A DNA stretch of 64,000 nucleotides. Source: Chitinophagaceae bacterium (GTDB lineage Bacteria; Bacteroidota; Bacteroidia; Chitinophagales; Chitinophagaceae). The position numbers and the translations under genes are program-made. Shown in pieces: positions 3,636-56,536 of this stretch; within the stretch, counting starts at the first letter, position 1, and each line of letters starts with the position of its first letter. The DNA is taken from NCBI GenBank assembly GCA_046297935.1, contig JBKBHA010000004.1, forward strand, positions 297,447 to 361,446, written 5' to 3'. The notes beneath the pieces were generated by a model, which ran no database searches, was not told the origin of the DNA, and saw only the letters and a list, made by a program, of their open reading frames with translations.

Positions 3636-4154
3636 TTAGAATGTGATACCGACCTGAATGCCTGCTGTGAAACTTGGTGGGTGACTGTTTCCAAATCTAA
3701 CAGGCATCGGTACGGCCACAAAATAACCTAGACCCTTGGTTTTCTTCACAATCTTGTTGATCACCGGAGTAAATCCATACCGCCCTCCGCTTTCAAAGGC
3801 GGCACGACCTGCCAAAGTCCAACCCTTGCCCAGGGCCAGCAGCAGCCCAGGATGAAATAATAAATTATTCATTCGGCTTCCTGAAGAATCAGCCCGAACG
3901 AATGGCACGAATTCGACCGAAAATCCGACTCCTGGACTCTTCCAGATATTGATCCCGACCGGCAGGCCAACTGTATAGGTATCTTTAAAATTCGTGATTA
4001 CTCGATCCTTGCTTAAGGTGACTATTGGATGGACTATTCCCACGTAGCCCCCTAATTTTGAATTGCCCTGCACCGATTGAGCTTGTGCGGTTAACTTAAT
4101 GACTACCGCTAATAACGTCAACCCAATGTAATATTTTCCGTTTAGACCACCCAT
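3636..4154 (-). CDS. Small outer-membrane beta-barrel-like hypothetical protein
   Basis: Signal peptide, alternating hydrophobic pattern, C-terminal aromatic residue (…GITF). Confidence 0.35.
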   Translation of the reverse strand: MGGLNGKYYIGLTLLAVVIKLTAQAQSVQGNSKLGGYVGIVHPIVTLSKDRVITNFKDTYTVGLPVGINIWKSPGVGFSVEFVPFVRADSSGSRMNNLLFHPGLLLALGKGWTLAGRAAFESGGRYGFTPVINKIVKKTKGLGYFVAVPMPVRFGNSHPPSFTAGIQVGITF

Positions 4155-4220
4155 TTTTCAGGCAATATTACAATGTCGAGAATCACCAAAATTGAACAGA
4201 AATGACCTTTGGTACAAAAG

Positions 4221-5060
4221 TTACCTGCTTCTCAACTTTTTTCGAAAGTCAGACGGATTTTGTCCGGCAATTCGTTTAAAGATTCTTGTAAAATGACTTT
4301 GATCTGCAAATCCGGTGAGGTAAGCGATTTCCGTCAACGAATAAGCTCCTGAGGTCATTAGTTCTTTGGCCCTATTGATTCTTTGCTGTTGGATATATAC
4401 GCCGAATGACATATCGCCGAAGTATTTTGAGAATTCTCGTGATAGATAAGAGGGGTTCAAGTTGAGATCTTTAGAAATTTCCTTTAATGTCAGGGTAGTA
4501 TCAATTTGATCCTGAATGATCTCTTTTAGTTCTTTTGCCCATGCTGGCATTTCTTCATCTGACCCGCCAACATGTCTTAAAATCTTGTTATACGCTCGCA
4601 GCAATAAATGTTCAGAAGGTTGTTGGGTATGCTTTTGATCCTGTAAAAATTTTGCCCAGCTGTATAATGCATCATACAGGACTATGCCCTGTTCCAACAG
4701 TTCGTAATCGTTTTCAAAATTGTATGCAAGTCCGGCAGAAATTGCCCACAAACCTGCTGACTGCGAGGCGAGGTCGTGGCGGTCGATGTCCGCTCCGCGA
4801 ATAATGGTTGCCATCTTATGAACCGCCCGGTCTTCAATTTTATGTTTTTTAATAAAATAATCAAAGGTACAGGTACCACCGTAATGGGTGTATTCTACCT
4901 CGGGTATGTCAAATGGAATTGCATTCAGTTCCTGTGCTTTTGTCTTCACACTTTCAAGTGGCGCATAGATAATTTCAGCACCCCTGTCAATAAAGCGTTT
5001 GATCAGCCAGGGACAGGCAATGCGATCTATTTTCGGGCGATTACGAGTTATCCATTTCAT
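4221..5060 (-). CDS. AraC-family transcriptional regulator with an N-terminal ChrB/Chrome_Resist-like domain
   Basis: The C-terminal HTH_AraC signature (YLTGFADQSHFTRIFKR) is clear. The N-terminal DRIACPWLIKRFID resembles the ChrB C-domain motif, from memory. Confidence 0.7.
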   Translation of the reverse strand: MKWITRNRPKIDRIACPWLIKRFIDRGAEIIYAPLESVKTKAQELNAIPFDIPEVEYTHYGGTCTFDYFIKKHKIEDRAVHKMATIIRGADIDRHDLASQSAGLWAISAGLAYNFENDYELLEQGIVLYDALYSWAKFLQDQKHTQQPSEHLLLRAYNKILRHVGGSDEEMPAWAKELKEIIQDQIDTTLTLKEISKDLNLNPSYLSREFSKYFGDMSFGVYIQQQRINRAKELMTSGAYSLTEIAYLTGFADQSHFTRIFKRIAGQNPSDFRKKLRSR

Positions 5061-5118
5061 AATTTCAATCGGGCGAAAATTGTTGGAAGGATTGACGCCT
5101 GTAATCGGTGTACAAGAT

Positions 5119-5352
5119 TCAATTGGTCTTTCTAACGGTGAACGAGTATTGATTACCAGAACCGGCTAACACAGTAGCAACCCGCTTGACTATCTCTGTA
5201 ATCGGTAAATTTCCCCTGTAATTGAACGACATGAAATTGGTAAACGTATCCTTTCTCACAGGTTTGAACGAATCATTTTGCATGTCGGCAGATAGCTGTT
5301 CTAGTTGTTCCGCTGCTACCTCGTCGACTCGAATATCAATAGTAAAGGCCAT
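5119..5352 (-). CDS. Small hypothetical protein
   Basis: Non-overlapping 77-aa ORF between two same-strand genes. No family recognised. Confidence 0.25.
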   Translation of the reverse strand: MAFTIDIRVDEVAAEQLEQLSADMQNDSFKPVRKDTFTNFMSFNYRGNLPITEIVKRVATVLAGSGNQYSFTVRKTN

Positions 5353-5381
5353 ATTGAATTGTTTTGTCTGTCTTGAATGAT

Positions 5382-6587
5382 TTATATGTGCAGATAATTG
5401 TAGTACCTGCGTTCTATGGACTTATAGAATGAAGTAAACAAGATTAGGATGAGAGTCAGCAAAACACCCAGATTAAAGTATGGAAACGTGACCAACAAAT
5501 AAGCGCCGAGTGCGATGCCCCTAAAAAATTCGAGATGAAATATCCATCTCCGTTGCTCCAACATGGCACCTGTTGTGATGACACTCAATATCAAATAAAC
5601 TGCAAGTATGAATATCTGCGTATTACTCAGATAGTGTTCCAGCAGGATGATGCAAAAAAGAACGGTTAGTGAAATGAAAGTTTTTACCATTATGTAGCCA
5701 CCAAGTGTTTCAGAAAGTTGATTTTCTTTTACTCCGATAGACAATTTTCGCTCTAAATGCTCACGGATGCGAGGATCGATTTCGTCAGGTTTGCCAAGTA
5801 GGCATTTCAGCTTTTTTCGGAGGCCTTTTGATCTTTTGAAAGCCGTCATCATCTCTAAAAAGAAGTGAAAGTGCTGCCAAAGAAAGCTATGGCTGTTCAG
5901 GGGCTTTGTAATACCGTACACTGGCACTTCATTTTCTTTAGCAAAAGTTCCAAAGATCTTATCCCAAATTATTAATACATCCCCAAAGTTTTTATCAAGA
6001 TAGCAGGGGTTTGAGCTATGATGTACTCGGTGATGAGATGGCGTTACAAAGAGATATTCAAGAACACCTAGTCGTCCTACCAACTGCGTATGTGTAAAGA
6101 AGGGATAGGTGCCGTGAACCAGCAAAAGTAACGTGATCATTTCCGGCGGAAACCCGACCAAAGGCAGGATTGACCAAAAGAGACAACGAGCTGCAGCCTG
6201 AAAGACAGTTATACGCGCTGCAACAGTAAAATTAAAGTCGTCGCTCTGATGATGTACAACGTGGAAGCTCCAAAACAAGTTTACCTTGTGACCAACGCGA
6301 TGATACCAGTACCATACCAGATCGGTGAGTACAAAAAGCAAAACCCAAGTCAATAATTCCGGCTTTATATCAGCTATGGCGAAATTGCGGTGTATCCAGG
6401 AAAAGAAGAAAAAGAATAGTCCGGTTGTAAACAGATCACAAAGCCTTTCAGCAATTCCTACATTAAGGTTTGCGACTACTTCCTTAAAGTTGAAGGTTCC
6501 CATATTCCTCTTCACAGACAGAAAATATTCCAATAACATAAATCCGACGAATAAGGGGATCGCAAAAGCAAGATAGTTTAGGTGCAT
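5382..6587 (-). CDS. Fatty-acid hydroxylase / sterol desaturase superfamily membrane protein with an extra C-terminal polytopic domain
   Basis: Histidine boxes HRVGH, HVVHH and HHRVHH. Multiple TM segments. Confidence 0.7.
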   Translation of the reverse strand: MHLNYLAFAIPLFVGFMLLEYFLSVKRNMGTFNFKEVVANLNVGIAERLCDLFTTGLFFFFFSWIHRNFAIADIKPELLTWVLLFVLTDLVWYWYHRVGHKVNLFWSFHVVHHQSDDFNFTVAARITVFQAAARCLFWSILPLVGFPPEMITLLLLVHGTYPFFTHTQLVGRLGVLEYLFVTPSHHRVHHSSNPCYLDKNFGDVLIIWDKIFGTFAKENEVPVYGITKPLNSHSFLWQHFHFFLEMMTAFKRSKGLRKKLKCLLGKPDEIDPRIREHLERKLSIGVKENQLSETLGGYIMVKTFISLTVLFCIILLEHYLSNTQIFILAVYLILSVITTGAMLEQRRWIFHLEFFRGIALGAYLLVTFPYFNLGVLLTLILILFTSFYKSIERRYYNYLHI

Positions 6588-6606
6588 ACTTAGCGCTTTT
6601 TATAAC

Positions 6607-7494
6607 TTAATGACCTCGGGATACTTCATATAATTCATACCAATCCTGCCTGTCGATATCAACCGAAAACGCATTTACGATATTTTTTATCCGTTTTTGA
6701 TTGGTGGTGCCAATCAATGGTAAGGCACCGAGTTTGATCAGCCATGCTACTGCCACTGACTCAAAATTTACAGCTTGTCTGGCCGCAATCTCTTCCAATT
6801 TATGTCTTACACCTAAAGGGACTTTATCACTACTGGTAGCTATCCTTCCGTTGGCAAGCGGCGAGGTGGCAAGCGGGCGCATATACCTTTGTTTGATGTA
6901 GTCGATCTGCCCATTGTCTAGTGCAGAAGTGTTCAAGAGATTTAATTCAATGTGGTTGGTAACAATCGGTATCCGCAAGTATGAGCTTAGTAGCTGGTGT
7001 TGAAATACTGAGAAATTGACAATACCGATATGCCTTACTTTTCCAGATTCCTTTAGCTTTTCAAGCGTAATGGCAGTCTGTTCGAGGTTCGAAAGAGGAT
7101 CCAACTGATCTAAAAGAAAAACATCTATGTAATCGGTGCGGAGGTTCTTGAGAGAATTTTCGAGGCTTTTTTCAATATGCCTCCCGGACGTATCATTATA
7201 CTTCACTCTTATATCGGTACGTGAGGGGTGAGGTATATTCTGGCCACATTTTGTGAATAGCACCACATCGTTGCGCTTAACAGATCTATTCTTTAGAATA
7301 TTTCCAAATAGTGTTTCCGCCTGATATCCACCGTAAATATCTGCATGATCAAATGTATTGATCCCCAGTTCGAGGCAAAGGTTAACAATTTCTTCCATTT
7401 TAGAGTAGTCCATATCCTGATCGGTCCAACGGTAAAACCCATAAATAGCCGGAGAAACTTTTGGGCCTGAATCACTTAGATAAATCTTTTCCAT
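6607..7494 (-). CDS. Aldo/keto reductase family oxidoreductase
   Basis: GINTFDHADIYGGYQAE, the AKR catalytic-tetrad region. ~295 aa. Confidence 0.8.
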   Translation of the reverse strand: MEKIYLSDSGPKVSPAIYGFYRWTDQDMDYSKMEEIVNLCLELGINTFDHADIYGGYQAETLFGNILKNRSVKRNDVVLFTKCGQNIPHPSRTDIRVKYNDTSGRHIEKSLENSLKNLRTDYIDVFLLDQLDPLSNLEQTAITLEKLKESGKVRHIGIVNFSVFQHQLLSSYLRIPIVTNHIELNLLNTSALDNGQIDYIKQRYMRPLATSPLANGRIATSSDKVPLGVRHKLEEIAARQAVNFESVAVAWLIKLGALPLIGTTNQKRIKNIVNAFSVDIDRQDWYELYEVSRGH

Positions 7495-7528
7495 TCTAAC
7501 AATTTGTTTAAGTCAAATACGAATGATG

Positions 7529-8083
7529 CTACAAGCTTATTTTTCTGTGAAACTTGGACTCTTGAACATACGCCGCCAGGTGGCTATCTATATTTGTCTC
7601 GGCTGTGTTATTAAAGATATTTGTCGCGACCATCATACCTGCGAAGGCTATCAGTAGTACCATTTCATTTGTTTTAAAGTCGACAGAAATTGCATTGTAC
7701 ACATAATCAGAGATATTGCCCGAATACTTTGCTATCGCAGAGCCAAATTGATATAATGCCTGTTCCTGCCTGTTTAATTGAAGATGGTCCGCGCTTTCTC
7801 CCGACTCAGCAACTAACTTCCTAAAGACCGCAGTGCAAAGTGGACTTTCGGAGGTGGAAGATAAAGCCAAAGCATACAAGGCGGCCATTCGCTTACCCAG
7901 CAAATTTTCGATTTCGTCATACATAACATACCATTGCATGTACACTTCTAAAGCGGGCAAGGAGTGGCACAAAGTCAGGTTCGTGTTCGTTATAATGCCA
8001 TTGTTTGTCCTTAAATGTCTTTCTAACGCAACTTTTACCGATGGAGAAAGACGATTGATATCCATTTGTGGTATTCTTGCCAT
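7529..8083 (-). CDS. Carboxymuconolactone decarboxylase / AhpD-like family protein (tentative)
   Basis: ~184 aa helical protein with a Cys-x-His (LTLCHSL) arrangement reminiscent of the CMD/AhpD fold. Weak. Confidence 0.35.
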   Translation of the reverse strand: MARIPQMDINRLSPSVKVALERHLRTNNGIITNTNLTLCHSLPALEVYMQWYVMYDEIENLLGKRMAALYALALSSTSESPLCTAVFRKLVAESGESADHLQLNRQEQALYQFGSAIAKYSGNISDYVYNAISVDFKTNEMVLLIAFAGMMVATNIFNNTAETNIDSHLAAYVQESKFHRKISL

Positions 8084-8184
8084 AATCCGGTATTTAACTT
8101 AAAGCCTGGTAAGTTTGTTGAAATGCATCCCGTAGAAACGGGATGCGTGTATGAACGACTGCTTACCTACTATAAAATGTACAG

Positions 8185-8255
8185 AGATCAAGGGTGGATT
8201 CGAACCACCGTATAAGGTTTTGCAGACCTTCGCCTAACCACTCGGCCACATGATC
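8185..8255 (-). tRNA. tRNA-Cys (anticodon GCA)
   Basis: Hand-folded cloverleaf on the minus strand: acceptor gatcatg/cttgatc, anticodon stem aaggt/acctt with loop cuGCAaa, T-arm ggtgg-ttcgaat-ccacc. No encoded CCA. Confidence 0.8.
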
Positions 8256-8302
8256 ATTAGACCGTTCTTTGCTATGATCGATTTGTCAAAGTAAGGGAAA
8301 TT

Positions 8303-8333
8303 TTATTAGTCTACCAAAATGGTAGACTAATAA
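8303..8333. repeat. Perfect 13-bp-stem palindrome TTATTAGTCTACC-AAAAT-GGTAGACTAATAA. It shares the core motif GTCTAC-N7-GTAGACTAATAAT with a second copy at 8889-8914.
   Basis: Read directly from the sequence. It lies between tRNA-Cys and the 3' end of the small minus-strand ORF. Confidence 0.6.
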
Positions 8334-8513
8334 TTTAATTTTCTTCACAGAAATTTTTCAAATTTTTCTCTATTAACGATATTGATTAATGTCAGCCCAA
8401 GAACGCAGCGGATATGTCAAATTGTAACGGGGGAGCCTTGAATATTCAGATCGCGAGATAGCATGATCATTTCGCGAGTGCTCGGTTTATTTATTTTCAG
8501 AACAGGCTAGAGG

Positions 8514-8822
8514 CTATTTTTTTTTGAGTTTTATCTGTAAGTACTTTGGATTGCTCGTAATACGCAGCTGCTTAGAATGATATTTGCTGTGCTTAACGGT
8601 CAGGAGAAACGGATAAGAGTTCCAAGTTGTCAACTTAAACTCCCCCAACTCGCCAGTAATAGCTTCTTCTTCACCTTCAACGGTGTAGACGTAAGCTCCG
8701 GCGACGGGAAGGCCATCATCTGCGTTTATAATTTTTCCTTTCAGTTCAATCGATTCGGATAAAGTCATGAAATGAAGTGTAAGGACAGGAATAAGCGTTA
8801 TTATACTTAAGAACGTTTTCAT
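8514..8822 (-). CDS. Stand-alone carboxypeptidase-regulatory-like (CarbopepD_reg) domain protein. It resembles the N-terminus of a TonB-dependent receptor and is possibly a gene fragment.
   Basis: Signal peptide followed by GKIINADDGLPVAGAYVYTVEGE...GEFKL and ...YHSKQLRITSNPKYLQIKL, which resemble the CarbopepD_reg start of SusC/TonB receptors. It ends in KKK encoded by an A9 tract. Confidence 0.4.
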   Translation of the reverse strand: MKTFLSIITLIPVLTLHFMTLSESIELKGKIINADDGLPVAGAYVYTVEGEEEAITGELGEFKLTTWNSYPFLLTVKHSKYHSKQLRITSNPKYLQIKLKKK

Positions 8823-8888
8823 CTTTCTATATATTTTTTGTCGCTTTGGCAGGGGCCATGATAGTTGCCGGTAATTTTCATTACATTT

Positions 8889-8914
8889 GTCTACAAAAAT
8901 AGTAGACTAATAAT
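8889..8914. promoter_or_regulatory. Second copy of the GTCTAC-N7-GTAGAC-TAATAAT palindromic motif, in the divergent promoter region between the CarbopepD_reg ORF and the TlpA-like gene. Candidate operator.
   Basis: GTCTACAAAAATAGTAGACTAATAAT is seen in the sequence, ~20 nt upstream of the 8936 start. Confidence 0.4.
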
Positions 8915-8935
8915 AGAGGGACAAATTTTTTTGAC

Positions 8936-10396
8936 ATGAGATATATTTTTTTTGGCAGTTTTGTTGTAAGTTCTCTAAGCAGTATTGCACAAAAAGAAGT
9001 GCAACCTCTTATTGCAAAAGATACGTTCGCTGATGGAGGAGTTTTGCGTGGAGGGGTTAATGTGTCGAACAGTACTCGGGATATCAGTTTATCAATCGCT
9101 GGGGATGGTCTTTATGATCTTTCCGCTTTTAATGGAAATTCCTTTTCGGAAGCTCATGCTGAATTTAAAAGAAAGGGGTTAGCCGGTTTCGAAGCCGGGA
9201 TATTTCAATTTCAATCGCGCAGTCTGGACAATATGGATACTTCGTTTTTTGGAGATTGGCGGGGAGTTTTTCATTTAGAAAATGCAAAAGAGCTTCCTTT
9301 CAATTTTGCAATACAGGGGAAATCAATTGCTGATGCAAAAGTATTCTTCATAAATGGCGAGGAGCGATTCGAAAGCGGAGGCCTGCAATTGCAAGGCGAT
9401 TCCCTTTTTATACAAACCAGTCCATTCGATAACGAACTGGCTTTCTGCATTACTAACGATACGCTGAAGGGTGTGCTTCGACGGCGGGACCTCACGGGTA
9501 GGGCATTGAAAGTGAGTGCTACTCGCGGGGATTATCGCTTTTCGGATATCGGATTGGAAACGGATATTGACATATCAGGAACCTATGCCGTCTCCTTTAA
9601 AAATGAAAAGGGGGCTGATGAACAAGCAGTTGGGCTTTTTGCACAACATGGTCGACGTCTTAAGGCAACTTTTCTTCGTATTACAGGCGACTCCCGCTAT
9701 CTGGATGGCATCGTACAAGGCCGTCATTTTCGACTTTCTTCCTTTATAGGTTCAAGCCCTGTTCTATATGAGGGAGAAATTGTTACCGATAGTACACTAA
9801 AGGGGGACGTATTTTTTTCCAGGGGAAAGCAGGGTTTCGAAGCAATTCGTGATGAAGATGCAAGCTTGCCCGATGCTTACCAAATCACCTTATTAAAAAA
9901 GGGATATAGTACATTAGATTTTAAATTTCCAGATGTTGACGGGAAGATGGTATCTATTAAGGATGAAAAGTATAGAAACAAGGTTGTAATCGTGACTATT
10001 GGCGGAACCTGGTGCCCCAACTGTATTGATGAAGCTGCATTCTTGGCGCCATGGTATAAAGCAAACCGGACTCGAGGTATCGAGGTGATATCGATTCATT
10101 TTGAACGACAGACAGATTCGGCCTATATAAAAAAAGTGCTTACTCGTTTTCGTCAGCGATTTGATATCGAATACGATGAATTGGTGGGCGGAATAGCAGA
10201 CAAACAAAAAGTGGCAGAATCAATGCCAGCATTGAATGCCTTTCTTTCGTTTCCAACGACAATTTTTATCGATAAAAACGGAAAGGTTTCCAAAATCCAT
10301 ACGGGTTTCAGTGGCCCCGCCACAGGAATACATTATGCCAGATTTGTACAAGAATTTTCTGACTTGGTTGACAAGTTGGTTAACGAACGGCAATAG
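8936..10396 (+). CDS. TlpA/ResA-like thiol:disulfide oxidoreductase (thioredoxin fold, AhpC/TSA family) with a large N-terminal domain
   Basis: WCPNC active-site motif in GGTWCPNCIDEAAFL. C-terminal thioredoxin-like region. Signal peptide. Confidence 0.7.
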   Translation: MRYIFFGSFVVSSLSSIAQKEVQPLIAKDTFADGGVLRGGVNVSNSTRDISLSIAGDGLYDLSAFNGNSFSEAHAEFKRKGLAGFEAGIFQFQSRSLDNMDTSFFGDWRGVFHLENAKELPFNFAIQGKSIADAKVFFINGEERFESGGLQLQGDSLFIQTSPFDNELAFCITNDTLKGVLRRRDLTGRALKVSATRGDYRFSDIGLETDIDISGTYAVSFKNEKGADEQAVGLFAQHGRRLKATFLRITGDSRYLDGIVQGRHFRLSSFIGSSPVLYEGEIVTDSTLKGDVFFSRGKQGFEAIRDEDASLPDAYQITLLKKGYSTLDFKFPDVDGKMVSIKDEKYRNKVVIVTIGGTWCPNCIDEAAFLAPWYKANRTRGIEVISIHFERQTDSAYIKKVLTRFRQRFDIEYDELVGGIADKQKVAESMPALNAFLSFPTTIFIDKNGKVSKIHTGFSGPATGIHYARFVQEFSDLVDKLVNERQ

Positions 10397-10546
10397 GCAG
10401 TAGCATCGATGAAACTGAACAGGTATTTGCGATGGCAGTAGCTTCGACCTTTAGATTTTAAGGTAGCTATTCGAGTAATTCACGCCATATGTTGGTATTC
10501 TCTTTCGCCTGCGTTCAAAACAGTACCTTTACTCTAAACTACCGAA

Positions 10547-12231: not shown

Positions 12232-12984
12232 ATGTCTGAACCTCTGCCTCACGATCATATTATACCTTTTCGCGATTCGGAAAAGACGAAGAAGGAGCAA
12301 GTGGCCGAAATGTTTGATGCCATTGCTCCTCGCTATGATTTCATGAATCGTTTTTTGTCGGCCCGCACCGATATTGGCTGGCGACGCAAAGCTATTCGCC
12401 TTTTTCGTGATCAAAATCCTAAAGTTTTACTGGATGTAGCTACCGGCACGGCCGATATGGCTATCATGGCCTGTAAATTGCTGAATCCCGACCGTATCGA
12501 TGGCATTGATATATCGCCGCAGATGCTGGATGTGGGCAGGAAGAAGATTGAGAAAGAGGGACTTGCAGGAAAAATCCGCCTTCAGGTAGGGGATTCCGAA
12601 ACAATAAACTTTGCGGAAAATACGTTTGATGGCGGAATGGTAGCTTTCGGGGTGCGCAACTTTGAGAATCTGGAAAAAGGCCTCTCGGAAATAAATAGGG
12701 TACTGAAACCCGGAGCCCGGCTCGTAATTCTGGAGTTTTCCCGTCCACGTCAGCCCATTCGCAGCTTTTACAATATTTATATGAAATGGCTGGCACCGCA
12801 AATGGCCCGCTGGTTCAAGACAAATAAGGCAGCTTACCAATATTTAAATGAATCAGCCAATGCGTTTCCGGACAGGCAGCGGCTGGTTGATATTCTAAAA
12901 AAATGTGGTTTTACCGATACCCGTTACAAATCGTTAAGCTTAGGAATATGTTGCATTTACACCGGTTTCAAACCGTCGGCATAA
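12232..12984 (+). CDS. ubiE: Demethylmenaquinone / ubiquinone methyltransferase UbiE/MenG. Start trimmed to the ATG at 12232; the listed ORF begins at 12148.
   Basis: FDAIAPRYDFMNRFLSARTDIGWRRKA and LLDVATGTAD SAM-binding motif. Highly typical UbiE/MenG sequence. Confidence 0.85.
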   Translation: MSEPLPHDHIIPFRDSEKTKKEQVAEMFDAIAPRYDFMNRFLSARTDIGWRRKAIRLFRDQNPKVLLDVATGTADMAIMACKLLNPDRIDGIDISPQMLDVGRKKIEKEGLAGKIRLQVGDSETINFAENTFDGGMVAFGVRNFENLEKGLSEINRVLKPGARLVILEFSRPRQPIRSFYNIYMKWLAPQMARWFKTNKAAYQYLNESANAFPDRQRLVDILKKCGFTDTRYKSLSLGICCIYTGFKPSA

Positions 12985-13682
12985 AAATTTTTTCCGTAGC
13001 CCTGTTGCTGATGGCCAGCCTGACCGACCTGAAAGCACAGCGCCGCGAAATGTACCTCTACGATCACGATTACAAGCCCTACTATTTCGGTCTCACATTC
13101 AGCATCAACTCGGCAAGGTTTCATACACAAATGCACTCGCAGTTTCTTGCCAACGACAGTGTGTTGGTAGCCGAGCCCATGAATTCTGGTGGCTTTTCGT
13201 TGGGCCTCTCTGCTACTGCCCGCATTTCAGATCGCTTCCAGGTGCGTTTCAACCCGCAACTGTCCTTTCTGGAACGCAGCATCTATTATAAACTGAAATT
13301 TCCGGAAGGTGGAGAAACAGAGATGACCAAAACGGTTGAATCCACCAACGTATCCTTTCCTTTCCAATTGAAATTACAAAGCGACCGGATAGGTAATTTC
13401 CGTGTTTATCTGATGGGAGGATTTAAAGCCGATATTGACCTGGCCAGCAATGCGCGAGCAAAAAAGGCAGAAGACCTGGTGAAGATTAAACAGTTCGACT
13501 TCGGCCCTGAATTGGGCATTGGTTTCAATTTCTTTTTCCAAAGCTTCATTCTTTCCCCTGAAATAAAAATCAGCAATGGCCTCCCCAATATTCATAGCCG
13601 CGATGCCAGCCTGAAATACTCCAGCGTATTCGACAAGATTCAGTCGAGAATGATCACGTTTTCTATTCACATCGAAGGCTAG
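12948..13682 (+). CDS. Outer-membrane beta-barrel protein, possibly PorT/SprT-like. Start uncertain and overlaps the ubiE end.
   Basis: Signal peptide LLLMASLTDLKAQ, ~240 aa, beta-strand periodicity. Sits immediately downstream of ubiE. The PorT assignment comes from size and context only. Confidence 0.35.
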   Translation: MLHLHRFQTVGIKIFSVALLLMASLTDLKAQRREMYLYDHDYKPYYFGLTFSINSARFHTQMHSQFLANDSVLVAEPMNSGGFSLGLSATARISDRFQVRFNPQLSFLERSIYYKLKFPEGGETEMTKTVESTNVSFPFQLKLQSDRIGNFRVYLMGGFKADIDLASNARAKKAEDLVKIKQFDFGPELGIGFNFFFQSFILSPEIKISNGLPNIHSRDASLKYSSVFDKIQSRMITFSIHIEG

Positions 13683-13725
13683 ACGAATTATGCCTTTGGC
13701 AATGAGAAGACCTGGCGGCAGGAAG

Positions 13726-13970
13726 GTGTGCAAATGTGCAAATGTGCAGGTGTGCAAGTGTGTAATTGGAATTTGCTAATTTGTTAATTCGCTAACTTGA
13801 TTTTTATTGGCGAATCTTTCAATCAGCGCAATCTGCGTTAAAATCTGCGTGATCTGCGGGAAAAGAACTGTTGCCCTTAAGAAAGATTACAAACAGAGCA
13901 GACTTTCTGTTCCCACAGATGAAAAATCCACTTCCCACTCTCCACTCCCCATTCCCCACTTCCCCCTCTC
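13726..13970. repeat. Composite intergenic repeat element, copy 1. Left arm (TGTGCARR)x5, core with four ATCWGCG boxes + GGGAAAAGAACTGTTGCC ... CTGTTCCCACAGAT, right arm (CCACTYC)x6 = (GRGARTG)n on the other strand.
   Basis: Read directly from the sequence. It shares core motifs with the element at 54729-55322. It lies between two convergent 3' ends. Confidence 0.6.
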
Positions 13971-15711
13971 AAAAATCAAACTCTCTCCTAAACATATTCC
14001 ATCTCACCCCAAAGGAGACCACCGAAGTATTTTCATCGAAGACCGGGGCGGTGCGTGTTTTGGTACGCCGATAGCTCGCATTTAGTTCCAGAAAGAAATT
14101 TTCCCGCCATTCGTATTGAATCAGCAATGATCCGTACAGCACATTGGTCTTCCAGCCCGATCCAATTTTAAAGCCATAGTCCATGGTGCGATAGGGCGGT
14201 GTATTAGGCAGAAATATATTGCTGCCATAGTTGGCCGCACTCGAGTCGCGGCCCTGTACATAATACATTAGTCTTGCCTGTATGAGCCAGCGCGGAGCAG
14301 GTTGATAACGGGCCACGCCGATCCATTCGGAGAAATTGGCCATCAGTGGGTGTGCCAGGGGTTGATTATAGTGGGTATAGTTGGCCACCGAGTCGTTATG
14401 CGAATAGGTAAACGGCCTTACTGCGTTGTGTTCAATTTGAAGATCGAGGTTCTGAATGCGGAAGGCATCGATGTATTTGGCGCCAATCTGCCAGCCAAAC
14501 TTATTGGCCCACCAGCCATCAGCTGCCCTTATTTCCGACAACTTGAATTCGTCGAGCAGCAATTGCCCATATACCTGAAACTTCTTCGCAATGCTCGCTT
14601 TGAAATCAAGACCGGCAACGGCATTGTCGAAGCTGCCATTTTGTTGTTCAATGGATCGATAAAAGATAACAGGGTTCAGATACGAGAAATCGAATCGGTT
14701 GGGACGGCCAAATATTACTCCCTCAAAAAGTCCGATGTTCAGCCAGCGGGTAACATTGATATCGAGATGGTGCATGGCTGCGTATTTTTTCCCGATCAAA
14801 CGATCGCCGCCACGTTGTTCGGCATTTTGAAGTTCCAGAAACAGGTTCTGATAGTTGAATTTCCAGATTCGTGTATTGAGTTTTAAAAACAGCATATTGC
14901 TGCCAAAATCACTCAGAAAAAGGCTGCGCTGGCCATTGCCAATGAACTGTTTGTCGTATCCAAAACTAATATCAATGAATTTTGCAGCATTGAACGTAAA
15001 ATAACCTCGCGCATCGAAATAGTCCACACCGCCCGGATCTTTAAAGGATTTGTAAAAGCCATTGCCGGGAACAGCATCGCGCTCCGAAATAAACTGTTGA
15101 GCCCAGCTGGGATCGCGTTCCTGATTATCGGTCAGGTACGCAGCAAATCCAATTTTTTTACCAATCATTCCGCGCAGCGAAATACCACGGCTGTTGAGAA
15201 ACAAATGCTGATCATTGTCGGCTTCCCTGGAAATCACATACTGGAAAACCGGATTGATGACCAGGTTAAATTCGGGAGTATGAACTTCATATAAATTAGC
15301 CGGTGTAGTGTAGAAACGACGTGCAATGGGCTTGCGGCTTTTATAAAGTGCCCGCTCAGAATCGCTGAGTTCAACCAGGTTGTTCAGGTAAGCCCTTTCG
15401 ATATTGTAACGGTCCACTTTCGACAGTTCGGGATTGCCCGGGTTGGCCAGGTAACGACGAATGCCTTCTACCACATACTTCTGACGATTAAATGGCCTGG
15501 TCTTTGAAAAATTGAGAACCGAATCGTTGCCTGCCTTTATTTCAAGCCGCTCCATCAAACGATATGCTTTATCATCGCCGGGTAGAAATGTGGATTGGGC
15601 CTGCAATTTTGCGGCACAAATGCCAAAGGTAGTAGCGAGTAAAACAAGACCCCTGCAGAATTGGTTTTCAAGAAATCCTGTCGGTCTTACAAGGGTTTTT
15701 ATAAATTGCAT
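13969..15711 (-). CDS. Large outer-membrane beta-barrel protein (possibly Wzi/capsule-assembly-like). Function unknown.
   Basis: Signal peptide, ~580 aa, amphipathic strand pattern, C-terminal ...REFDF. No catalytic motif. Confidence 0.4.
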   Translation of the reverse strand: MQFIKTLVRPTGFLENQFCRGLVLLATTFGICAAKLQAQSTFLPGDDKAYRLMERLEIKAGNDSVLNFSKTRPFNRQKYVVEGIRRYLANPGNPELSKVDRYNIERAYLNNLVELSDSERALYKSRKPIARRFYTTPANLYEVHTPEFNLVINPVFQYVISREADNDQHLFLNSRGISLRGMIGKKIGFAAYLTDNQERDPSWAQQFISERDAVPGNGFYKSFKDPGGVDYFDARGYFTFNAAKFIDISFGYDKQFIGNGQRSLFLSDFGSNMLFLKLNTRIWKFNYQNLFLELQNAEQRGGDRLIGKKYAAMHHLDINVTRWLNIGLFEGVIFGRPNRFDFSYLNPVIFYRSIEQQNGSFDNAVAGLDFKASIAKKFQVYGQLLLDEFKLSEIRAADGWWANKFGWQIGAKYIDAFRIQNLDLQIEHNAVRPFTYSHNDSVANYTHYNQPLAHPLMANFSEWIGVARYQPAPRWLIQARLMYYVQGRDSSAANYGSNIFLPNTPPYRTMDYGFKIGSGWKTNVLYGSLLIQYEWRENFFLELNASYRRTKTRTAPVFDENTSVVSFGVRWNMFRREFDF

Positions 15712-37883: not shown

Positions 37884-39221
37884 TTGTCGGCGCCGGACCA
37901 GGCAGGCATCGGCGGAAAAGGCCTGACGCTTACAGACCTGCAGACCCTGAACAGTGGATTAATTCCTTCTGGCTTTATTCGAGGAGCTAATGGTGAGTCC
38001 GGCACAGTACCAAAAGCTTACATCAACTTCATACTGTTGGATGATCAGTTCCGGTTCGTCAGTGGGGATTTCAGTCGGGTAGGCGCTAGTGGCACTGTTA
38101 AGGATCATTGGTATACTGACGGGCAGTTGCAGGATATTGACGTGGCAAAAAATGGGTATCTTTATGTGTACGTGAGCAACGAGAGCAATGCTGATGTGTT
38201 CTTTGATAATCTGCAGGTAATACACACGCGAGGGCCAATTCTGGAAGAAACGCATTACTACCCGTTTGGACTTACTATGCAGGGAATATCTTCCAATGCA
38301 CTATCGTTCGGAAGTCCTGATAATAAATTAAAGTTTAACGGGAAGGAAGAACAACGACAAGAATTCTCTGATGGAAGTGGACTTGAATGGTTAGACTATG
38401 GAGCAAGGATGTATGATAATCAGATTGGTAGGTGGCATGTTCAGGATAAGTTTTCAGAAGTAATGTATGGCTGGAGCCCTTATCAATATGTATTTAACAA
38501 CCCACTCAGATTTGTAGATGTAAATGGAGATGTTCCCGGTCCGCCCCTCTTTTATTTTAAGACAAGAGATGATGCAGCTTATTATTGGGCGTTAATATAT
38601 TCGAAGCAGTCTAATGCTGAGCAAGCAGAATATTCTGGCATTATATATAGCTTTACACATAAAGGCGAAACTGTTTATGGCTTCACGAAAGGATTTAGGT
38701 ATTATGAGGACGAACATCCAGGTAAAAAACCATTTAGGAAGTCACCTGGTCCCGGTGATAATCCTGCTGTAAACTGGGACGACGAAATGCCAGAAGGGGC
38801 TAAAAAGGAAGCCCATATTCATATTCACCATGCTGCAACTGGAAAAGGTAATGATACATTTTCTTGGGGGCCTCGCTCGGATGAAGAATTAATGCCTAAA
38901 CACCCGGACTTGTGGTGGTATTTGGTTAATAATATCGGAGAGCTAAGAGTTAGAAGAGGTGCGAAAATATTTGTAGGCCATGGTGCAGAAAGATTAACAT
39001 GGGGTAATTTTTACGAGACAACGAATCTAGATAATCGACCGACTACTACTTCGTTGTATGAGGGTAACCGAAAAATGTATCACACATTATCTGAAAAGTA
39101 TGAGTGGACCTTTCAATTAACTCAGCTGTTAATGAGTTCTTATATAAATTCCTTGCATCAGGGTTCGACGGAAGAAAAGCAAGATGTAAAAAAAGTTGAA
39201 CCACCTAAGAAAGCTTTTTAA
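37884..39221 (+). CDS. Orphan, 5'-truncated RHS repeat-associated core C-terminus fused to a C-terminal polymorphic toxin domain of unknown family
   Basis: RHS core-end motifs [18 protein letters not shown] ... [19 protein letters not shown] (a degenerate DPxGL). There is an in-frame stop just upstream of the listed TTG start, and no N-terminal RHS repeats. The CT half is AT-rich. Confidence 0.65.
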
Positions 39222-39230
39222 AATGTGTCT

Positions 39231-39893
39231 ATGAAATATTTTTATCTGATTGTCGTAACCTTATTTGCAATTTCCTGTACTAACAATATATGTAAGAGTA
39301 AGCCAATATCTGGTTATGTTTATATTGATATGGAAAAAGAAATAAGCTTGTCACAGTTAATAGAAATTCGAAAAACCCTTATTGAAGCTGAGATAGACAG
39401 GATGGGGGAGATTTCTGGATATGATTCAAACAAACATTCTTTGCAGCTAAAAATCTATACATCGTTTGGCGATACAGAAAATGAAAAGTTGTTCGTTCTT
39501 GAAAAAATTAATAGCAAATGGATGGCCAAAGAGCTTCGATACCAATTTGATATTAGTGCGATGCAGGATACTATATACATTAGAATTAATGCCATCAAAG
39601 ACCTTACACCACAGATATCCTGGGAGGCGTTTTACGATTCCCTTAGGAGCTCGAATATTTTCAAACTATCAGGTGACCATACGTTAGAAGGATATGAAGA
39701 ATCAATGGGTATAGTTGATGGAGTGGAGGTGGTTTTTAGGGATAAATCAGACAGTAATCGGTATAGTTATAGGGAAATTGAGTTAAATAAGAAGTTCCGT
39801 GAAGTGGAAGATTTGGATAAGGTATTAAATTTTATAGAAGGTACTTTCGATGGAAAGTATATTTATAGGTCTTGTTTTTTTAGGGAGAAATAA
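39231..39893 (+). CDS. Putative cognate immunity protein (lipoprotein-like) for the upstream RHS-CT toxin
   Basis: Starts 9-12 nt after the toxin stop, on the same strand. Very AT-rich. N-terminal signal/lipobox-like AISCTNN. No known family. Confidence 0.4.
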   Translation: MKYFYLIVVTLFAISCTNNICKSKPISGYVYIDMEKEISLSQLIEIRKTLIEAEIDRMGEISGYDSNKHSLQLKIYTSFGDTENEKLFVLEKINSKWMAKELRYQFDISAMQDTIYIRINAIKDLTPQISWEAFYDSLRSSNIFKLSGDHTLEGYEESMGIVDGVEVVFRDKSDSNRYSYREIELNKKFREVEDLDKVLNFIEGTFDGKYIYRSCFFREK

Positions 39894-39967
39894 TAAAATG
39901 CATAGTGTATGCCAATAGGTAGTAGGCGGCAGTAAAGAGCAAAAAGATAGATTAGTTACGGGGTGCA

Positions 39968-40910
39968 ATGAGAGTAGCCATGAAGGTTACGGTAATCAAC
40001 AGGAAGCATGCTGGCTATTTAAACAAGCCCGAGATTGCAGGCTTGTCCGTAAGGCATAACCTCGATTTGTGTAACGGTACACAGGTTGAGAAGTTCGTAA
40101 GGCGGGTTGCTGAAAAACTGGAGACCTGCCTGACGGCAGGCAGGCAGCATAACTCTTACAAAGGCTATTGCAGACATAACAGGCCAGGTAGAGCAGTTCA
40201 GGTTACAGCAACTGGGTAAGCAGGAAACCAGAAAGGAGAAGGCTTTAAGCAATGAGGAACGGGAAACAGCCATTCAATTCTTGGAACAAAAAGACCTGCT
40301 GCAAGGAACCAATGAAATGATAGGTAAAAGTGGTGTGATTGGAGAAGAGACAAACAGGCTGCTGATGTACCTGATATTTGCCAGCAGAAAACGAGAGCAT
40401 CCTTTGCATATAATTTCACTCGGTAATAGTGGCATTGGAAAAACTTACTTACAGGAGAAGGTAGGAGAATTGATACCGGAAGAAGATAAGGTAGAGATAA
40501 CTACGCTGTCAGAGAATGCCCTGTACTACTTTGGTCAACGGGAATTGCAACACAAGCTGGTATTGATAGAAGATTGGGATGGTGCAGCGAATGTACTATA
40601 TCCATTGAGAGAGCTGCAAAGCAAAAAGCTCATCGCCAAAACGCTGGCAAAGAAAACAACTACTGGTGAAACTAAGACCGTTCACATCAAGGTAGAAGGG
40701 CCAGTTAGCGTAGCAGGATGCACTACGCAGGAACAGGTATATGAGGATAATGCTAATAGAAGTTTTCTGATTTACATTGATGAGAGCAGGGAGCAGGATG
40801 AAAGGAAAATGGCTTATCAGCGTAGTAAAAGTGCACGGAGAGTAGACCGGGTACAGGAAAGTAAAACAAAACAGTTATTACAGAACACACAAAGAGTAAT
40901 GTTCAAGTGA
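39968..40910 (+). pseudogene. Frameshifted P-loop NTPase gene (primase/helicase- or D5/DUF3987-like). Likely a mobile-element remnant.
   Basis: Walker A LGNSGIGKT and Walker B LVLIED in the 40281.. ORF. The reading frame continues upstream into 39968..40219 in another frame. Confidence 0.4.
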
Positions 40911-53377: not shown

Positions 53378-54733
53378 GTGAAGAAGACATTTTCGATTAT
53401 TACTGTTCTCATCACCATTTCGTTGATTGGCATCATCATGATCCAGTTGTCGTGGTTGCGCAACATGATCCTGTTGACTGAGGAACAGATCAAGGGTAAT
53501 GTGGACAAAGCGATCATCAGCGTGGGAGAGGAGCTGTTGCAATACAAGAGTAATTACAATGTCAACACGCGGCGGCTCGACTCCGAAGCGTTGCTTCCCG
53601 ACGATTTTTCGCTGGAGTTTGTACAACCTATCACCCTTGGCAAACGCTTCAGCGGTGCCGAGCTATACGAGAAAATACGAATTGCCTTCGGTGCTGTAGG
53701 CCTCGATGATGTACGGTTTGAATTTGCACTTACCACCATCAATCCCAGAACCGGCGGACGCGATGTGATTGAGCGTAAATCGCCCGGCTTTCTGGAGGAA
53801 TACGACGATACGGTGAGCAACTATATGCGGGCATTTCCGCTAAGACCTCTTGGTGGATCTGCCGCTGAAAACCTGGCACCCGACGAAAATCTTGTGGTGG
53901 TAGCATTGGATGTAAAGAAGTCGGCAGTTGCCTCGCTTCGCTGGCGAATTGCCATTGCTATTTTATTTTCAATCATAATCGTGGCGGCCTTTTACTTGAC
54001 GGTACGCACTATGCTGCGGCAGAAAAAACTGGGTGAAATTAAAAATGATTTCATCAACAACATGACACATGAGTTTAAAACACCTATCGCCACTATTTCA
54101 CTGGCAGTAGACGCCATGCGCAATGAGAAAGTGCTGCAGGATCGCGATAAGATTTCCTATTTCAGTTCCATCATCAAAGAAGAAAATCAGCGAATGAACC
54201 GCCAGGTGGAGACAATTCTGAAAGCTTCGCAGCTGGAACGACAGGAAGTGAATCTGAACCTTCAGCCGCTGCACCTTCACAATATTATTGAAGATGTGGT
54301 CGAAAACTTTCAATTGCAGTTGGAGGAAAAAGGAGGTCATGCCGACATGAAACTGGAAGCCAGCAACGATCTGGTTAGTGCCGACGAAGTACATATGTCG
54401 AACCTCGTCAACAATTTGATCGATAACGCCGTCAAATATTCAAAGGAAAATGTGCCCATTGAGATCAGCATTTCTACCAGCAGCGATAGTCGTTCGTTTT
54501 ATCTGCGTGTAGAGGACAATGGAATAGGTATGAGTAAGGAAACCTTGAAGCGCGTTTTTGAACGTTTCTATCGGGCCCATACCGGCAATTTGCACAATGT
54601 GAAGGGCTTTGGCTTGGGGCTGAGTTATGTCAAAACAATCGTTCAGGCTCATGGTGGCGATGTGCGGGTAGATAGTACGCTGGGGAAGGGGAGTGTGTTT
54701 ACGTTGGAGATGCCGTTGCGGAGGGAGGGGTGA
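53378..54733 (+). CDS. Two-component sensor histidine kinase (membrane-anchored, orphan)
   Basis: H-box HEFKTPIATI. N/G1/G2 boxes (NLIDNAVKYS, DNGIGM, GFGLGLSYV). Two TM segments. Confidence 0.8.
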   Translation: MKKTFSIITVLITISLIGIIMIQLSWLRNMILLTEEQIKGNVDKAIISVGEELLQYKSNYNVNTRRLDSEALLPDDFSLEFVQPITLGKRFSGAELYEKIRIAFGAVGLDDVRFEFALTTINPRTGGRDVIERKSPGFLEEYDDTVSNYMRAFPLRPLGGSAAENLAPDENLVVVALDVKKSAVASLRWRIAIAILFSIIIVAAFYLTVRTMLRQKKLGEIKNDFINNMTHEFKTPIATISLAVDAMRNEKVLQDRDKISYFSSIIKEENQRMNRQVETILKASQLERQEVNLNLQPLHLHNIIEDVVENFQLQLEEKGGHADMKLEASNDLVSADEVHMSNLVNNLIDNAVKYSKENVPIEISISTSSDSRSFYLRVEDNGIGMSKETLKRVFERFYRAHTGNLHNVKGFGLGLSYVKTIVQAHGGDVRVDSTLGKGSVFTLEMPLRREG

Positions 54734-55322
54734 GAGGTGAAAGGTGAAAGGTGAGAGGTGAGAGGTGCGAGGTGAAAGGTGAAAGGTGAGAGGTGAGAGG
54801 TGAGACGTGAGAGGTGAAAGGTGAGAGGTGAGAGGTGAAAGGTGCGAGGTGAAAGGTGAGAGGTGAGAGGTGAGACGTGAGAGGTGAGAGGTGAAACGTG
54901 AAACGGATTCCTTTTCGGAAACAGGTCATAAAATATCTGCGCAATCTGCGTATCAATCTGTGTCATCTGCGGGAACAGAAATTTCTTTCCTGTCAGTATT
55001 TTGCCAGCGGGGGCAACAGTCCTGTTCCCGCAGATTTTCGCAGATTTTTTCTCGCAGATTTCGCAGAATTAGATCCATGCTTCACAGATTTCATCTGCCT
55101 ACATTCTGCATCGGCAGACAAGCTTCTCACCTTTCACGGCTCACGTTTCACGTCTCACCTCTCACCTCTCACCTCTCACCTCTCACCTTTCACCTCTCAC
55201 CTTTCACCTTTCACCTTTCACGTCTCACGTTTCACGTCTCACCTTTCACCTCTCACGTCTCACCTCTCACCTCTCACCTTTCACGTCTCACCTCTCACCT
55301 CTCACCTTTCACCTCTCACCTG
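54729..55322. repeat. Large composite palindromic repeat element, copy 2. (GTGARAG)x~25 left arm, ~220-bp core with 4x ATCTGCG, GGGAACAG...CTGTTCCC, 4x CGCAGAT, and (CTYTCAC)x~27 right arm, which is the reverse complement of the left arm.
   Basis: Read directly from the sequence. It fills the whole gap between the stop codons of the convergent HK and queA genes. Confidence 0.7.
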
Positions 55323-56536
55323 AGCACCAACATCCCATCCCCATAACTCAGAAACCGGAATTGTCGGCGAATGGCTTCTGCATACAGTTCCTTCCACGCA
55401 TCGCCGATCAGTGCTGCTACCAACAACAACAGTGTAGACGATGGCTGATGAAAATTGGTGACCAGCCCATCAATCATTTTAAACTGATAGCCTGGCGCAA
55501 TCAGAATTCTTGTTTTGGTTATCAGCTTTTGCTGTTGCTGCTGATCCATCCAGCTCAATAATCCCTGCAACGCTTCTTTTTTGCTGAAATGTGTTGGCAG
55601 TTCGTCGTACACCTCCCATTGACCCAATTCCGTTCCCGGCCGTAATGTTCCTGTGAGCGCCTTTACACCCAACCAGTAAACGCTTTCAATCGTGCGCAAC
55701 GAAGTAGTGCCTACCACAATTAATTTGTTTGCTTCACGGTCCAGCAATAGTTGCAGCAGTGAACGCTGCACTTCTATAAATTCAGCATGCATATCATGCC
55801 CTTCCATTTTTTCCGATTTCACAGGTTGGAAAGTGCCCGCACCTACATGCAATGTTGTGTAAGCTGTAATGCATCCCTTTATGCGCAGCGAATCCAGCAC
55901 CTCAGAAGTGAAATGCAGACCTGCAGTGGGCGCCGCCACCGATCCCTCTGCTCTGGCGTAGACAGTTTGGTAGCGCTCGCTGTCGGCCGTCTCTGGTTTA
56001 CGCCGAATATAGGGCGGCAACGGAATCTGCCCGGCCAGGTGAAGTACTTCCGCAAAGCTCAGTGATGGCTGGTCCCAGCTAAAGTTGACCAGAAATGCAC
56101 CTTCGTCCCGTCCTGCAAGACTTGCTTCCAGTGTAAACCCATGATCGGGTAGTCCCGCTTCGAGTCGCAGAACAAGCCCTTTTTTCCATTTTGATACACC
56201 CCCCACCATGCAGCGCCATTGAACCGATCCTTTTTCCTGCATGGCCGTTGGTATGTCAGGATAACGAGCAGGAGGTTCCAGGCAGAAGACTTCAATTTCG
56301 CCGCCCGAATCTTTCACAAATCGCAACCGGGCTTCCACCACTCTGGTGTCGTTAAATACAACAGTGCTGTTTTCCGGCAAATAATCCGCAATGTTCCGGT
56401 AAATGTCTTCTGCAATAATTTTCCCCTCGTAAACGAGCAATTTCGACTGATCTCGCTGTGGTAGCGGAAACCAGGCAATGTTTTCATCGGGCAAATGATA
56501 TTCAAAGTCAGTTATTGATAATTCGCGGGGGTGCAT
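55316..56536 (-). CDS. queA: S-adenosylmethionine:tRNA ribosyltransferase-isomerase. Start trimmed to MHPRELS.
   Basis: LSITDFEYHLPDENIA start, typical QueA. ~406 aa. Confidence 0.85.
   Translation of the reverse strand: MHPRELSITDFEYHLPDENIAWFPLPQRDQSKLLVYEGKIIAEDIYRNIADYLPENSTVVFNDTRVVEARLRFVKDSGGEIEVFCLEPPARYPDIPTAMQEKGSVQWRCMVGGVSKWKKGLVLRLEAGLPDHGFTLEASLAGRDEGAFLVNFSWDQPSLSFAEVLHLAGQIPLPPYIRRKPETADSERYQTVYARAEGSVAAPTAGLHFTSEVLDSLRIKGCITAYTTLHVGAGTFQPVKSEKMEGHDMHAEFIEVQRSLLQLLLDREANKLIVVGTTSLRTIESVYWLGVKALTGTLRPGTELGQWEVYDELPTHFSKKEALQGLLSWMDQQQQQKLITKTRILIAPGYQFKMIDGLVTNFHQPSSTLLLLVAALIGDAWKELYAEAIRRQFRFLSYGDGMLVLR

Follow-up and report, generated by a model that had tools for sequence, protein, structure and literature searches.

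Evidence for a decayed copy of a dispersed intergenic repeat family between convergent genes of a Chitinophagaceae bacterium

We found a composite element at positions 13726-13970 of the window (the whole 64,000-nt stretch of Chitinophagaceae DNA analysed here) and, with confidence that is about evenly balanced, read it as one member, now partly decayed, of a non-autonomous repeat family that is dispersed among intergenic regions and resembles REP/BIME elements or MITEs in behaviour. The conserved unit of this family consists of 7-nt boxes, ATCTG(C/T)G, repeated two to four times at about one helical turn and ending in ATCTGCGGGAA. The core of the 13.7-kb element aligns with that of a second copy at 55 kb far beyond chance, and related modules are abundant outside the window; hence, the proposal in the preliminary description of a dispersed family rather than a local duplication is supported.

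Two related elements in the window

The 13.7-kb element occupies a 286-bp gap with convergent genes on either side. To the left lies an outer-membrane beta-barrel (OMP) gene from the ORF list (12903-13682, + strand; Pfam OMP_b-brl_2, E = 3.2e-11; stop codon TAG at 13680-13682), whose neighbourhood is syntenic in the related loci L002, L004, L131, L134 and L135. To the right, also in the ORF list, lies a gene of the capsule-assembly Wzi family (13969-15711, − strand; its stop codon is the reverse complement of 13969-13971). Homologues of the window Wzi protein are named Wzi, and the best (97% identity) is from Chitinophagaceae/Terrimonas, which places the source bacterium near Terrimonas; an exact-sequence lookup found no record of the window protein itself.

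Read along the + strand, the element begins with a tandem 8-mer arm (TGTGCARR, 4.5 copies at 13727-13762), found by TRF and by a repeat search. TRF also detected a second, AATTTGCT-like 8-mer run (3.8 copies at 13770-13799, +), which the preliminary description did not list and which resembles the short empty gap of relative L006. The box module follows at 13822-13865 (+), with ATCAGCG at 13822 and ATCTGCG at 13831, 13843 and 13852, and runs into GGGAAAAG; GATCTGCGGGAAAAGAACTGTTGCC begins at 13851. The boxes are spaced 9/12/9 nt, i.e. as two 21-nt double-box units, and a profile of 214 modules matches this module with E = 1.8e-6 (nhmmer). Next comes a 41-nt loop (13866-13906, +), whose start, ACTGTTGCCC, and further positions also occur in the 55-kb loop on the other strand. 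The inverted partner is a remnant of one box only (13907-13920, − strand; CTGTTCCCACAGAT on the + strand, which is ATCTGTGGGAACAG on the − strand), and 13 of its 14 positions pair with 13852-13865. A right tandem 7-mer arm (CCACTYC, 5.9 copies at 13928-13968, + strand, TRF) abuts the wzi stop codon and is 54% C and 2% G on the + strand.

Every string quoted in the preliminary description was found where it had been placed, and the observation holds. Three corrections apply: the arms are not inverted copies of each other (8-mer TGTGCAAA versus 7-mer GTGGRRA on the other strand), the right side retains a single box, and the core hairpin is poor.

The hairpin of the 13.7-kb core is weak, with RNA-fold z-scores of -1.7 (+) and -1.3 (−), which is no better than shuffled sequence. 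After the stem come GAAAAAUCC on the + strand and CACGCAGAUUUU on the − strand, where a four-U run ends 12 nt past the stem. A scan for the terminator consensus found none at 13.7 kb, and neither strand has a U-tract directly after the stem. We infer that three of the four boxes once present on the right side are gone, and with them most of the stability of the hairpin. A U-tract beside the stem and a significant hairpin are both absent, and we regard the copy as a relic, probably with little or no structural function.

The 55-kb copy (54721-55321, unstranded), flanked by a HisKA kinase gene on one side and queA on the other, consists of a (GTGARAG)x25 arm (54721-54894), a four-box module (54935-54978) followed by a 43-nt loop, an inverted three-box module (55022-55059) and a (CTYTCAC)x28 arm (55125-55321). 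The core folds strongly (RNA z = -9.6 and -8.7), and AUUUU follows the hairpin on the + strand, so the stable stem plus U-tract of an intrinsic terminator is present there. The stop codons of the kinase gene and queA (54731-54733 and 55316-55318) sit in the outermost heptamer units, GTGAGAG containing TGA, and heptamers of this type place one stop per frame per 21 nt. The repeats of this copy also create spurious ORFs, for example at 54891-55346.

We found that about 100 nt of the 13.7-kb core (+, 13822-13922) can be aligned to the − strand of the 55-kb core with a local score of 65. The best control scores were 24 (500 shuffles) and 25 (963 random segments of the window), which refutes chance similarity, the doubt that the preliminary description had left to alignment. 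The alignment spans the boxes, the GGGAAMAG half-sites, the loop start ACTGTTGCCC and the CAGATGA after the second half-site, and 9/12/9 spacing is common to the 13.7-kb module and to 54935-54978. The score of the loops aligned by themselves was reached by 7 of 2000 shuffles. Judged by these alignments, the two cores are homologous, beyond mere similarity of style.

Pattern counts in the window agree in placing the signal at these two loci. With up to two mismatches, ATCTGCGGGAAMAG matches six times versus 0.93 expected, none of 100 shuffles reaches six, and four of the six matches are the two arms of the 13.7-kb and 55-kb loci. The two-arm pattern matches twice versus 0.00 expected, and 9 of the 16 exact ATCTGCG heptamers in the 64 kb fall inside the two loci. 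The profile of 214 external modules found no third locus in the 64-kb window. The idea that there is no family and that the resemblance is a by-product of local slippage or low complexity can draw on how common period 7-8 repeats are in intergenic DNA (111 of 157 lie far from modules), but the core alignment statistics, the zero expectation for the two-arm pattern and the hundreds of external copies refute it, and we give it practically no chance.

Two further candidates were rejected for the pair of loci. That they are the ends of one 41-kb mobile element is not supported, given the synteny of both junctions with box-less relatives and the ubiquity of the family. That they are DNA-uptake sequences is contradicted by their number, two loci in 64 kb with none in coding DNA.

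The two junctions in related genomes

At the wzi/OMP gap, relative L002 (95% nucleotide identity) has the element in the same orientation as the window. Its heptamer arm has 9.4 copies versus 5.9 in the window, its 8-mer copy number differs too, and its right half-site is further degraded (CCGTTCCCATGACACGGAT). Relatives with 81% protein identity (L131/L132) have 90 bp of one-directional 8-mers here and no boxes; L134 (73%) has a different palindrome, again with no boxes; L006 (74%) has a bare 63 bp; and Terrimonas pollutisoli (L135) has two small hairpins and no boxes. In L004, L005 and L007 (74%), a Gp49/HTH toxin-antitoxin pair takes the place of the element. In L004 this pair (Gp49 HigB-like plus HTH) spans 9776-10448, and L006, which has the same Wzi protein, is without it. 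Elsewhere, L004 has two composite elements of the window-type architecture, each with its own short arms.

At the kinase/queA junction, L128 (queA 97% identical) has flanks collinear with the window, and the core of about 230 bp between the heptamer arms is reverse-complemented. Once flipped, the L128 core is identical at 206 of 219 aligned positions (window 54895-55124 versus L128 11222-11620). The innermost arm units moved with the core, and the arms count 14 and 12 units versus 25 and 28. We found no recombinase gene adjoining the 55-kb copy. The inversion could have arisen by recombination between the inverted arms, and an arbitrary orientation chosen by the assembler would fit as well. 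A comparison with invertible DNA switches (invertons) concerns this copy alone, as the arms at 13.7 kb are not inverted repeats and L002 keeps the window orientation there. In L133, a 66% relative, the kinase/queA junction is occupied by a box-less core between inverted arms built from another 8-mer. These arms, (TTGATTTG)n and (CAACAAAT)n, flank a 250-bp core at L133 5405-5787 (GCA_964447825.1), and the QueA of this relative is called as 467 aa because its ORF runs through the arm.

Hence, arms and box module are separable layers, since tandem arms exist without any boxes at the same junctions (L131, L133 and L134). Arm copy number differs even between close relatives (L002 and L128 versus the window). 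Only the box module is conserved family-wide, and the arms are a fast-changing, lineage-typical layer. Intergenic gaps of this kind habitually contain short tandem repeats, in many cases arranged as inverted arms, and 111 of 157 period 7-8 repeats lie away from modules. Tandem repeats upstream of a module are richer in G than C in 15 of 20 cases and those downstream richer in C than G in 15 of 18, counts that include orthologous, non-independent loci.

At both loci, the intact four-box module with its 5' flank is the part least diverged from close relatives. Window positions 13784-13904 differ from L002 at one site only, compared with 11% of third codon positions; 19% of all 100-nt windows in this comparison are equally conserved. 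We therefore make no case for purifying selection on the core, the low divergence from L002 and L128 being not unusual for the local background.

The box module outside the window

We scanned a strict hairpin pattern against 185,579 species-representative genomes, a set that lacks the source genome, and found it in one further genome, a Chitinophagaceae MAG, as a perfect palindrome without tandem arms. The one-arm pattern (two boxes plus GGGAA) was found in at least 120 metagenome contigs and in 90 viral stretches, and a 35-nt consensus matched only Bacteroidota plasmids (Haliscomenobacter, Segatella and Parabacteroides), all at unannotated sites. The further copies on which the preliminary description had staked its family thus occur in other Bacteroidota genomes, metagenomes, viruses and plasmids. 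There are two loci in the 64-kb window, two in the 17.7 kb of L004 and two in the 8 kb of L001.

The consensus over 210 non-redundant modules is a.aa.atctG.gaAAATCTGcGaaATCTGCGGGAAAcaaat, and nothing is conserved further out. Box spacing across the family is mostly 9-10 nt. Modules occur singly or as inverted pairs able to form hairpins: among 208 arrays, 99 have a partner behind (TTCCC...boxes - loop - boxes...GGGAA), 21 have a partner ahead and 94 have none, with six arrays that have partners on both sides counted twice. Hence, the topology in the window, with GGGAA adjoining the loop, is the minority form (21 versus 99 arrays). Members of the opposite, majority topology end in A-runs.

The preliminary description had asked whether all copies sit between convergent genes, and they do not. 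A census, crude because it rests on crude gene calls, gave 43 convergent, 46 tandem and 19 divergent contexts. Bacterial modules lie mainly between genes and are over-represented in convergent and under-represented in divergent gaps, so that the family is enriched at gene 3' ends without being exclusive to them.

In 15 of 34 pairs, the two arms have a matching variable spacer; 5.9 such pairs are expected, and 2000 shuffles gave at most 13. Therefore, the arms of a pair have been copied from, or kept complementary to, each other. Similarly, the two composite copies of L004 share a loop, TAAACCTGTTCAAAGTTCA, that is absent from the window, and the two window copies share their own, ACTGTTGCCC. 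Genome-specific loop subfamilies of this kind suggest that entire units are copied inside a genome.

The family appears to be undescribed. Rfam scans at gathering thresholds returned only a tRNA in the window, where a tRNA gene lies at 8185-8255 on the − strand, and no family in 20 family loci; a permissive scan of 13600-14050 gave only noise (E up to 5). Literature searches with the box sequences returned unrelated primers and no description of the element. The Bacteroides FopS/GibS sRNAs and the promoter motif PM2 were considered as candidates and set aside; FopS is an Rfam family and had no match in the Bacteroides-type loci.

Some loci show a denser arrangement. In L015, five direct modules about 215-230 nt apart (4608-5477), each with a degenerate inverted partner before it, form a tandem array of a unit of about 225 nt that contains the module. 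In Bacteroidales-type loci (L124 2600-4720, L126, L045, L063, L067, L034 and L097), almost all gaps that separate small genes hold palindromic pairs of an ATCTGTG variant of the module, the genes including HU-HIG, PDDEXK_3-like and Amidase_2 genes with a tyrosine integrase adjacent. These pairs are accompanied by other small palindromes (GACTCCGCGAGGAGTC) and by AACATTA-type heptamers.

Spread, binding and termination

If the family is mobile, it would spread by a copy mechanism in which a trans-acting factor recognises the boxes. Inverted duplication, or template switching inside the palindrome, would keep paired arms alike, and the tandem arms would lengthen and shorten by replication slippage. 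Copies would persist mainly where they are harmless, at gene 3' ends, and strong ones such as the 55-kb copy would double as bidirectional terminators, with a stable hairpin, a one-sided U-rich tail and a C-rich, G-poor arm beyond.

We looked for the machinery and the traces of such spread. All-against-all ORF clustering found no recurrent neighbour protein in 120 loci, and no transposase or RAYT: the top cluster, an ABC ATPase, is present at 9 of the 120 loci, Pfam returned only generic families for the top clusters, and HU-HIG, integrase and amidase neighbours are limited to orthologous Bacteroidales loci. Between inverted modules 250-12000 nt apart, there is no transposase-like ORF, the ORFs being of HU-HIG or PDDEXK_3 type. 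No target-site duplication flanks the 44 paired elements, and none was found at the 13.7-kb copy by comparison with the gaps of L131 and L006. No fixed element ends were seen, the outer flanks often extending the palindrome. Strand-specific insertion of the IS200/IS605 or REP type was rejected, since no association was seen between single bacterial modules and either GC skew or gene strand. A further point against a mobile repeat is the range of the 7-nt box, which is the same in three or more Bacteroidota classes and in phage contigs with relatives among Cloacimonadota prophages. REPs, in contrast, differ between genera; such conservation of the box suggests an old, conserved factor that recognises it.

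The phage contigs (L137, L177, L180, L213 (IMGVR_UViG_3300026159_000618) and four related viral contigs; GC 0.58) encode portal, XkdF-type protease and Mu-F-like proteins, and their portal shares 66% identity with a conserved prophage-like gene present in Candidatus Cloacimonas and in numerous Cloacimonadota MAGs. Modules number 4-8 or more per contig, all gene-oriented and many 4-25 nt upstream of start codons. The four-box 9/12/9 layout of the window is found in 20 of 50 viral modules and prevails among those of these contigs. Some phage modules have (TTCTCAA)n heptamer runs beside them. Among cultured phages, we found neither the module nor a close homologue of the portal.

These contigs bring in another explanation, which we hold possible but not probable: the boxes, lying on one helix face at 9-10-nt spacing or in 21-nt double-box units, form an array of binding sites for a conserved DNA-binding protein that belongs to the host or was borrowed by phages. 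It would serve as an operator, a stoperator-like roadblock or a site for a nucleoid or recombination protein; chromosomal copies would be functional rather than selfish, and the 13.7-kb copy would keep its function through its intact left module. The conservation of box sequence and spacing across distant taxa argues for such an array, as do the identity of the window layout with that of 20 of the 50 viral modules, the low divergence of the four-box module and its 5' flank at both window loci, and the co-oriented, start-codon-proximal modules of one phage lineage, which look regulatory. However, gene starts are not favoured over gene ends in bacteria (26 versus 29 single modules, 31 versus 38 paired ones), no strand bias is seen, the low divergence is unexceptional against the local background, and loop sequences common within a genome indicate copying of whole units and not independent evolution of sites. 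The phage pattern comes from one or two related lineages only and is not mirrored in bacteria; therefore, we keep the binding array as the main rival. A promoter role was rejected, as no sigma-70-like site was found in 13400-14300 and the bacterial modules have no gene-start bias.

Termination offers a different account, which we consider unlikely: the composite structure would have formed locally at convergent junctions as a terminator working in both directions, where it stops read-through into the opposing gene, and would be read as a G-rich arm, a box hairpin and then a C-rich, G-poor arm acting as a Rho loading (rut-like) site. In the read-through sense, the distal arms are indeed densely set with YC dimers and contain 48-54% C but 2-5% G (55 kb both ways, 13.7 kb on +), the repeats of the family are polarised as given above, other relatives have different palindromes with tandem arms at the same two junctions, and at 55 kb a very stable hairpin precedes AUUUU on the + strand. 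The 13.7-kb copy does not fit, as its hairpin is no more stable than shuffled sequence, neither strand has a U-tract after the stem and the consensus scan found no terminator. Moreover, the left arms read on the − strand are merely 26% C, the polarity counts contain non-independent orthologues, and most family members are not at convergent junctions, have the opposite topology and end in A-runs. Strong copies may nevertheless serve as terminators, and the reading as a dispersed, partly decaying repeat family remains the one that we prefer.

A more far-reaching proposal joins these elements, and we rate it as rather improbable. The module, with its 21-nt double-box units and GGGAA end, would be the site of a trans-acting protein conserved in Bacteroidota/FCB-group lineages and exploited by phages. 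In phages, it would provide oriented, gene-proximal control; in chromosomes, it would seed palindromic, sometimes invertible, factor-dependent bidirectional terminators with strand-asymmetric arms. If true, the module would be a new cis-element system rather than another selfish repeat.

Among known repeats, the closest in behaviour are the REP, BIME and REPIN elements of Proteobacteria, which are short, multicopy extragenic repeats, often in inverted, hairpin-forming pairs (PMC2817692, PMC3116915, PMC3733652). They form mosaics with variable linkers, are concentrated at the 3' ends of genes, can terminate transcription or stabilise mRNA and are non-autonomous (PMC2817692, PMC3116915, PMC3733652), and a GTAG or CGTC tag is conserved at one REP end (PMC3733652). 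The family described here has many copies across genomes and is likewise extragenic, non-autonomous, enriched at 3' ends and present as inverted hairpin pairs. It differs in that a REP unit is itself an imperfect palindrome of 20-40 nt, whereas the module is a direct-repeat array that pairs only with a second, inverted module. In addition, GTAG and CGTC are absent from the module ends in 13822-13920 and from the family consensus, no RAYT-like gene was found beside the copies, and REPs are genus- or species-specific, whereas the box is kept across classes and phyla.

MITEs, BrickBuilt and BOX elements are small, intergenic, multicopy and bounded by inverted repeats, and the family resembles them in its small size, intergenic position, many copies and frequent inverted modules; BrickBuilt, a Bacteroidota example, and BOX join their inverted ends with variable tandem sub-repeats. 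In contrast to MITE-type elements, no target-site duplication, defined termini or parent insertion sequence was found here, and in contrast to BrickBuilt and BOX, the tandem repeats lie outside the inverted modules and are not conserved in sequence between copies. As no testable defining feature of REP/BIME or MITEs was found, we liken the family to them in its working and do not file it as a member of either.

Mycobacteriophage stoperators and start-associated sequences, reportedly described by Brown et al. in 1997 and Pope et al. in 2011, invite comparison with the phage modules. Those sites are 13 bp long, specific to a phage and recognised by its repressor. The likeness lies in the one phage lineage with numerous asymmetric, co-oriented modules in short gaps before start codons, whereas the module also occurs in host chromosomes of several classes, there mostly in palindromic pairs and with no orientation bias. 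The STRR heptamers and small dispersed repeats of cyanobacteria, said to go back to work by Mazel in 1990 and Elhai in 2008, resemble the arms in being intergenic heptamer arrays of variable copy number beside small dispersed repeats. They differ in phylum and sequence, and the heptamers here are locus-specific, strand-asymmetric arms around a box hairpin. Heptameric repeats are in excess in bacteria (PMC4692102).

Taken alone, the 13.7-kb locus is an ordinary copy in decay, and its family is widespread. REP, BIME, BOX and Correia elements have been informative on genome dynamics, termination and strain typing in Proteobacteria and Firmicutes, and to our knowledge almost no counterpart dispersed repeat is on record for Bacteroidota and their relatives. 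The module is short and easily recognised, and it ranges from gut Bacteroidales to soil Chitinophagaceae and phage genomes. If a protein reads it, that protein would be a phylum-wide regulator or a domesticated mobility factor.

There are also practical consequences. The elements yield spurious long ORFs and extend gene calls, and segments between them may be placed in arbitrary orientation. Contigs often end inside or beside a module or repeat arm (L003, L022, L037, L044, L048 and L053), which suggests that the elements break short-read assemblies; L003, a 3813-bp contig, ends 33 nt beyond the wzi stop codon. Within the window, G+C is lower at 4000-10000 and 38000-40000 (0.38-0.42 versus about 0.47 elsewhere).
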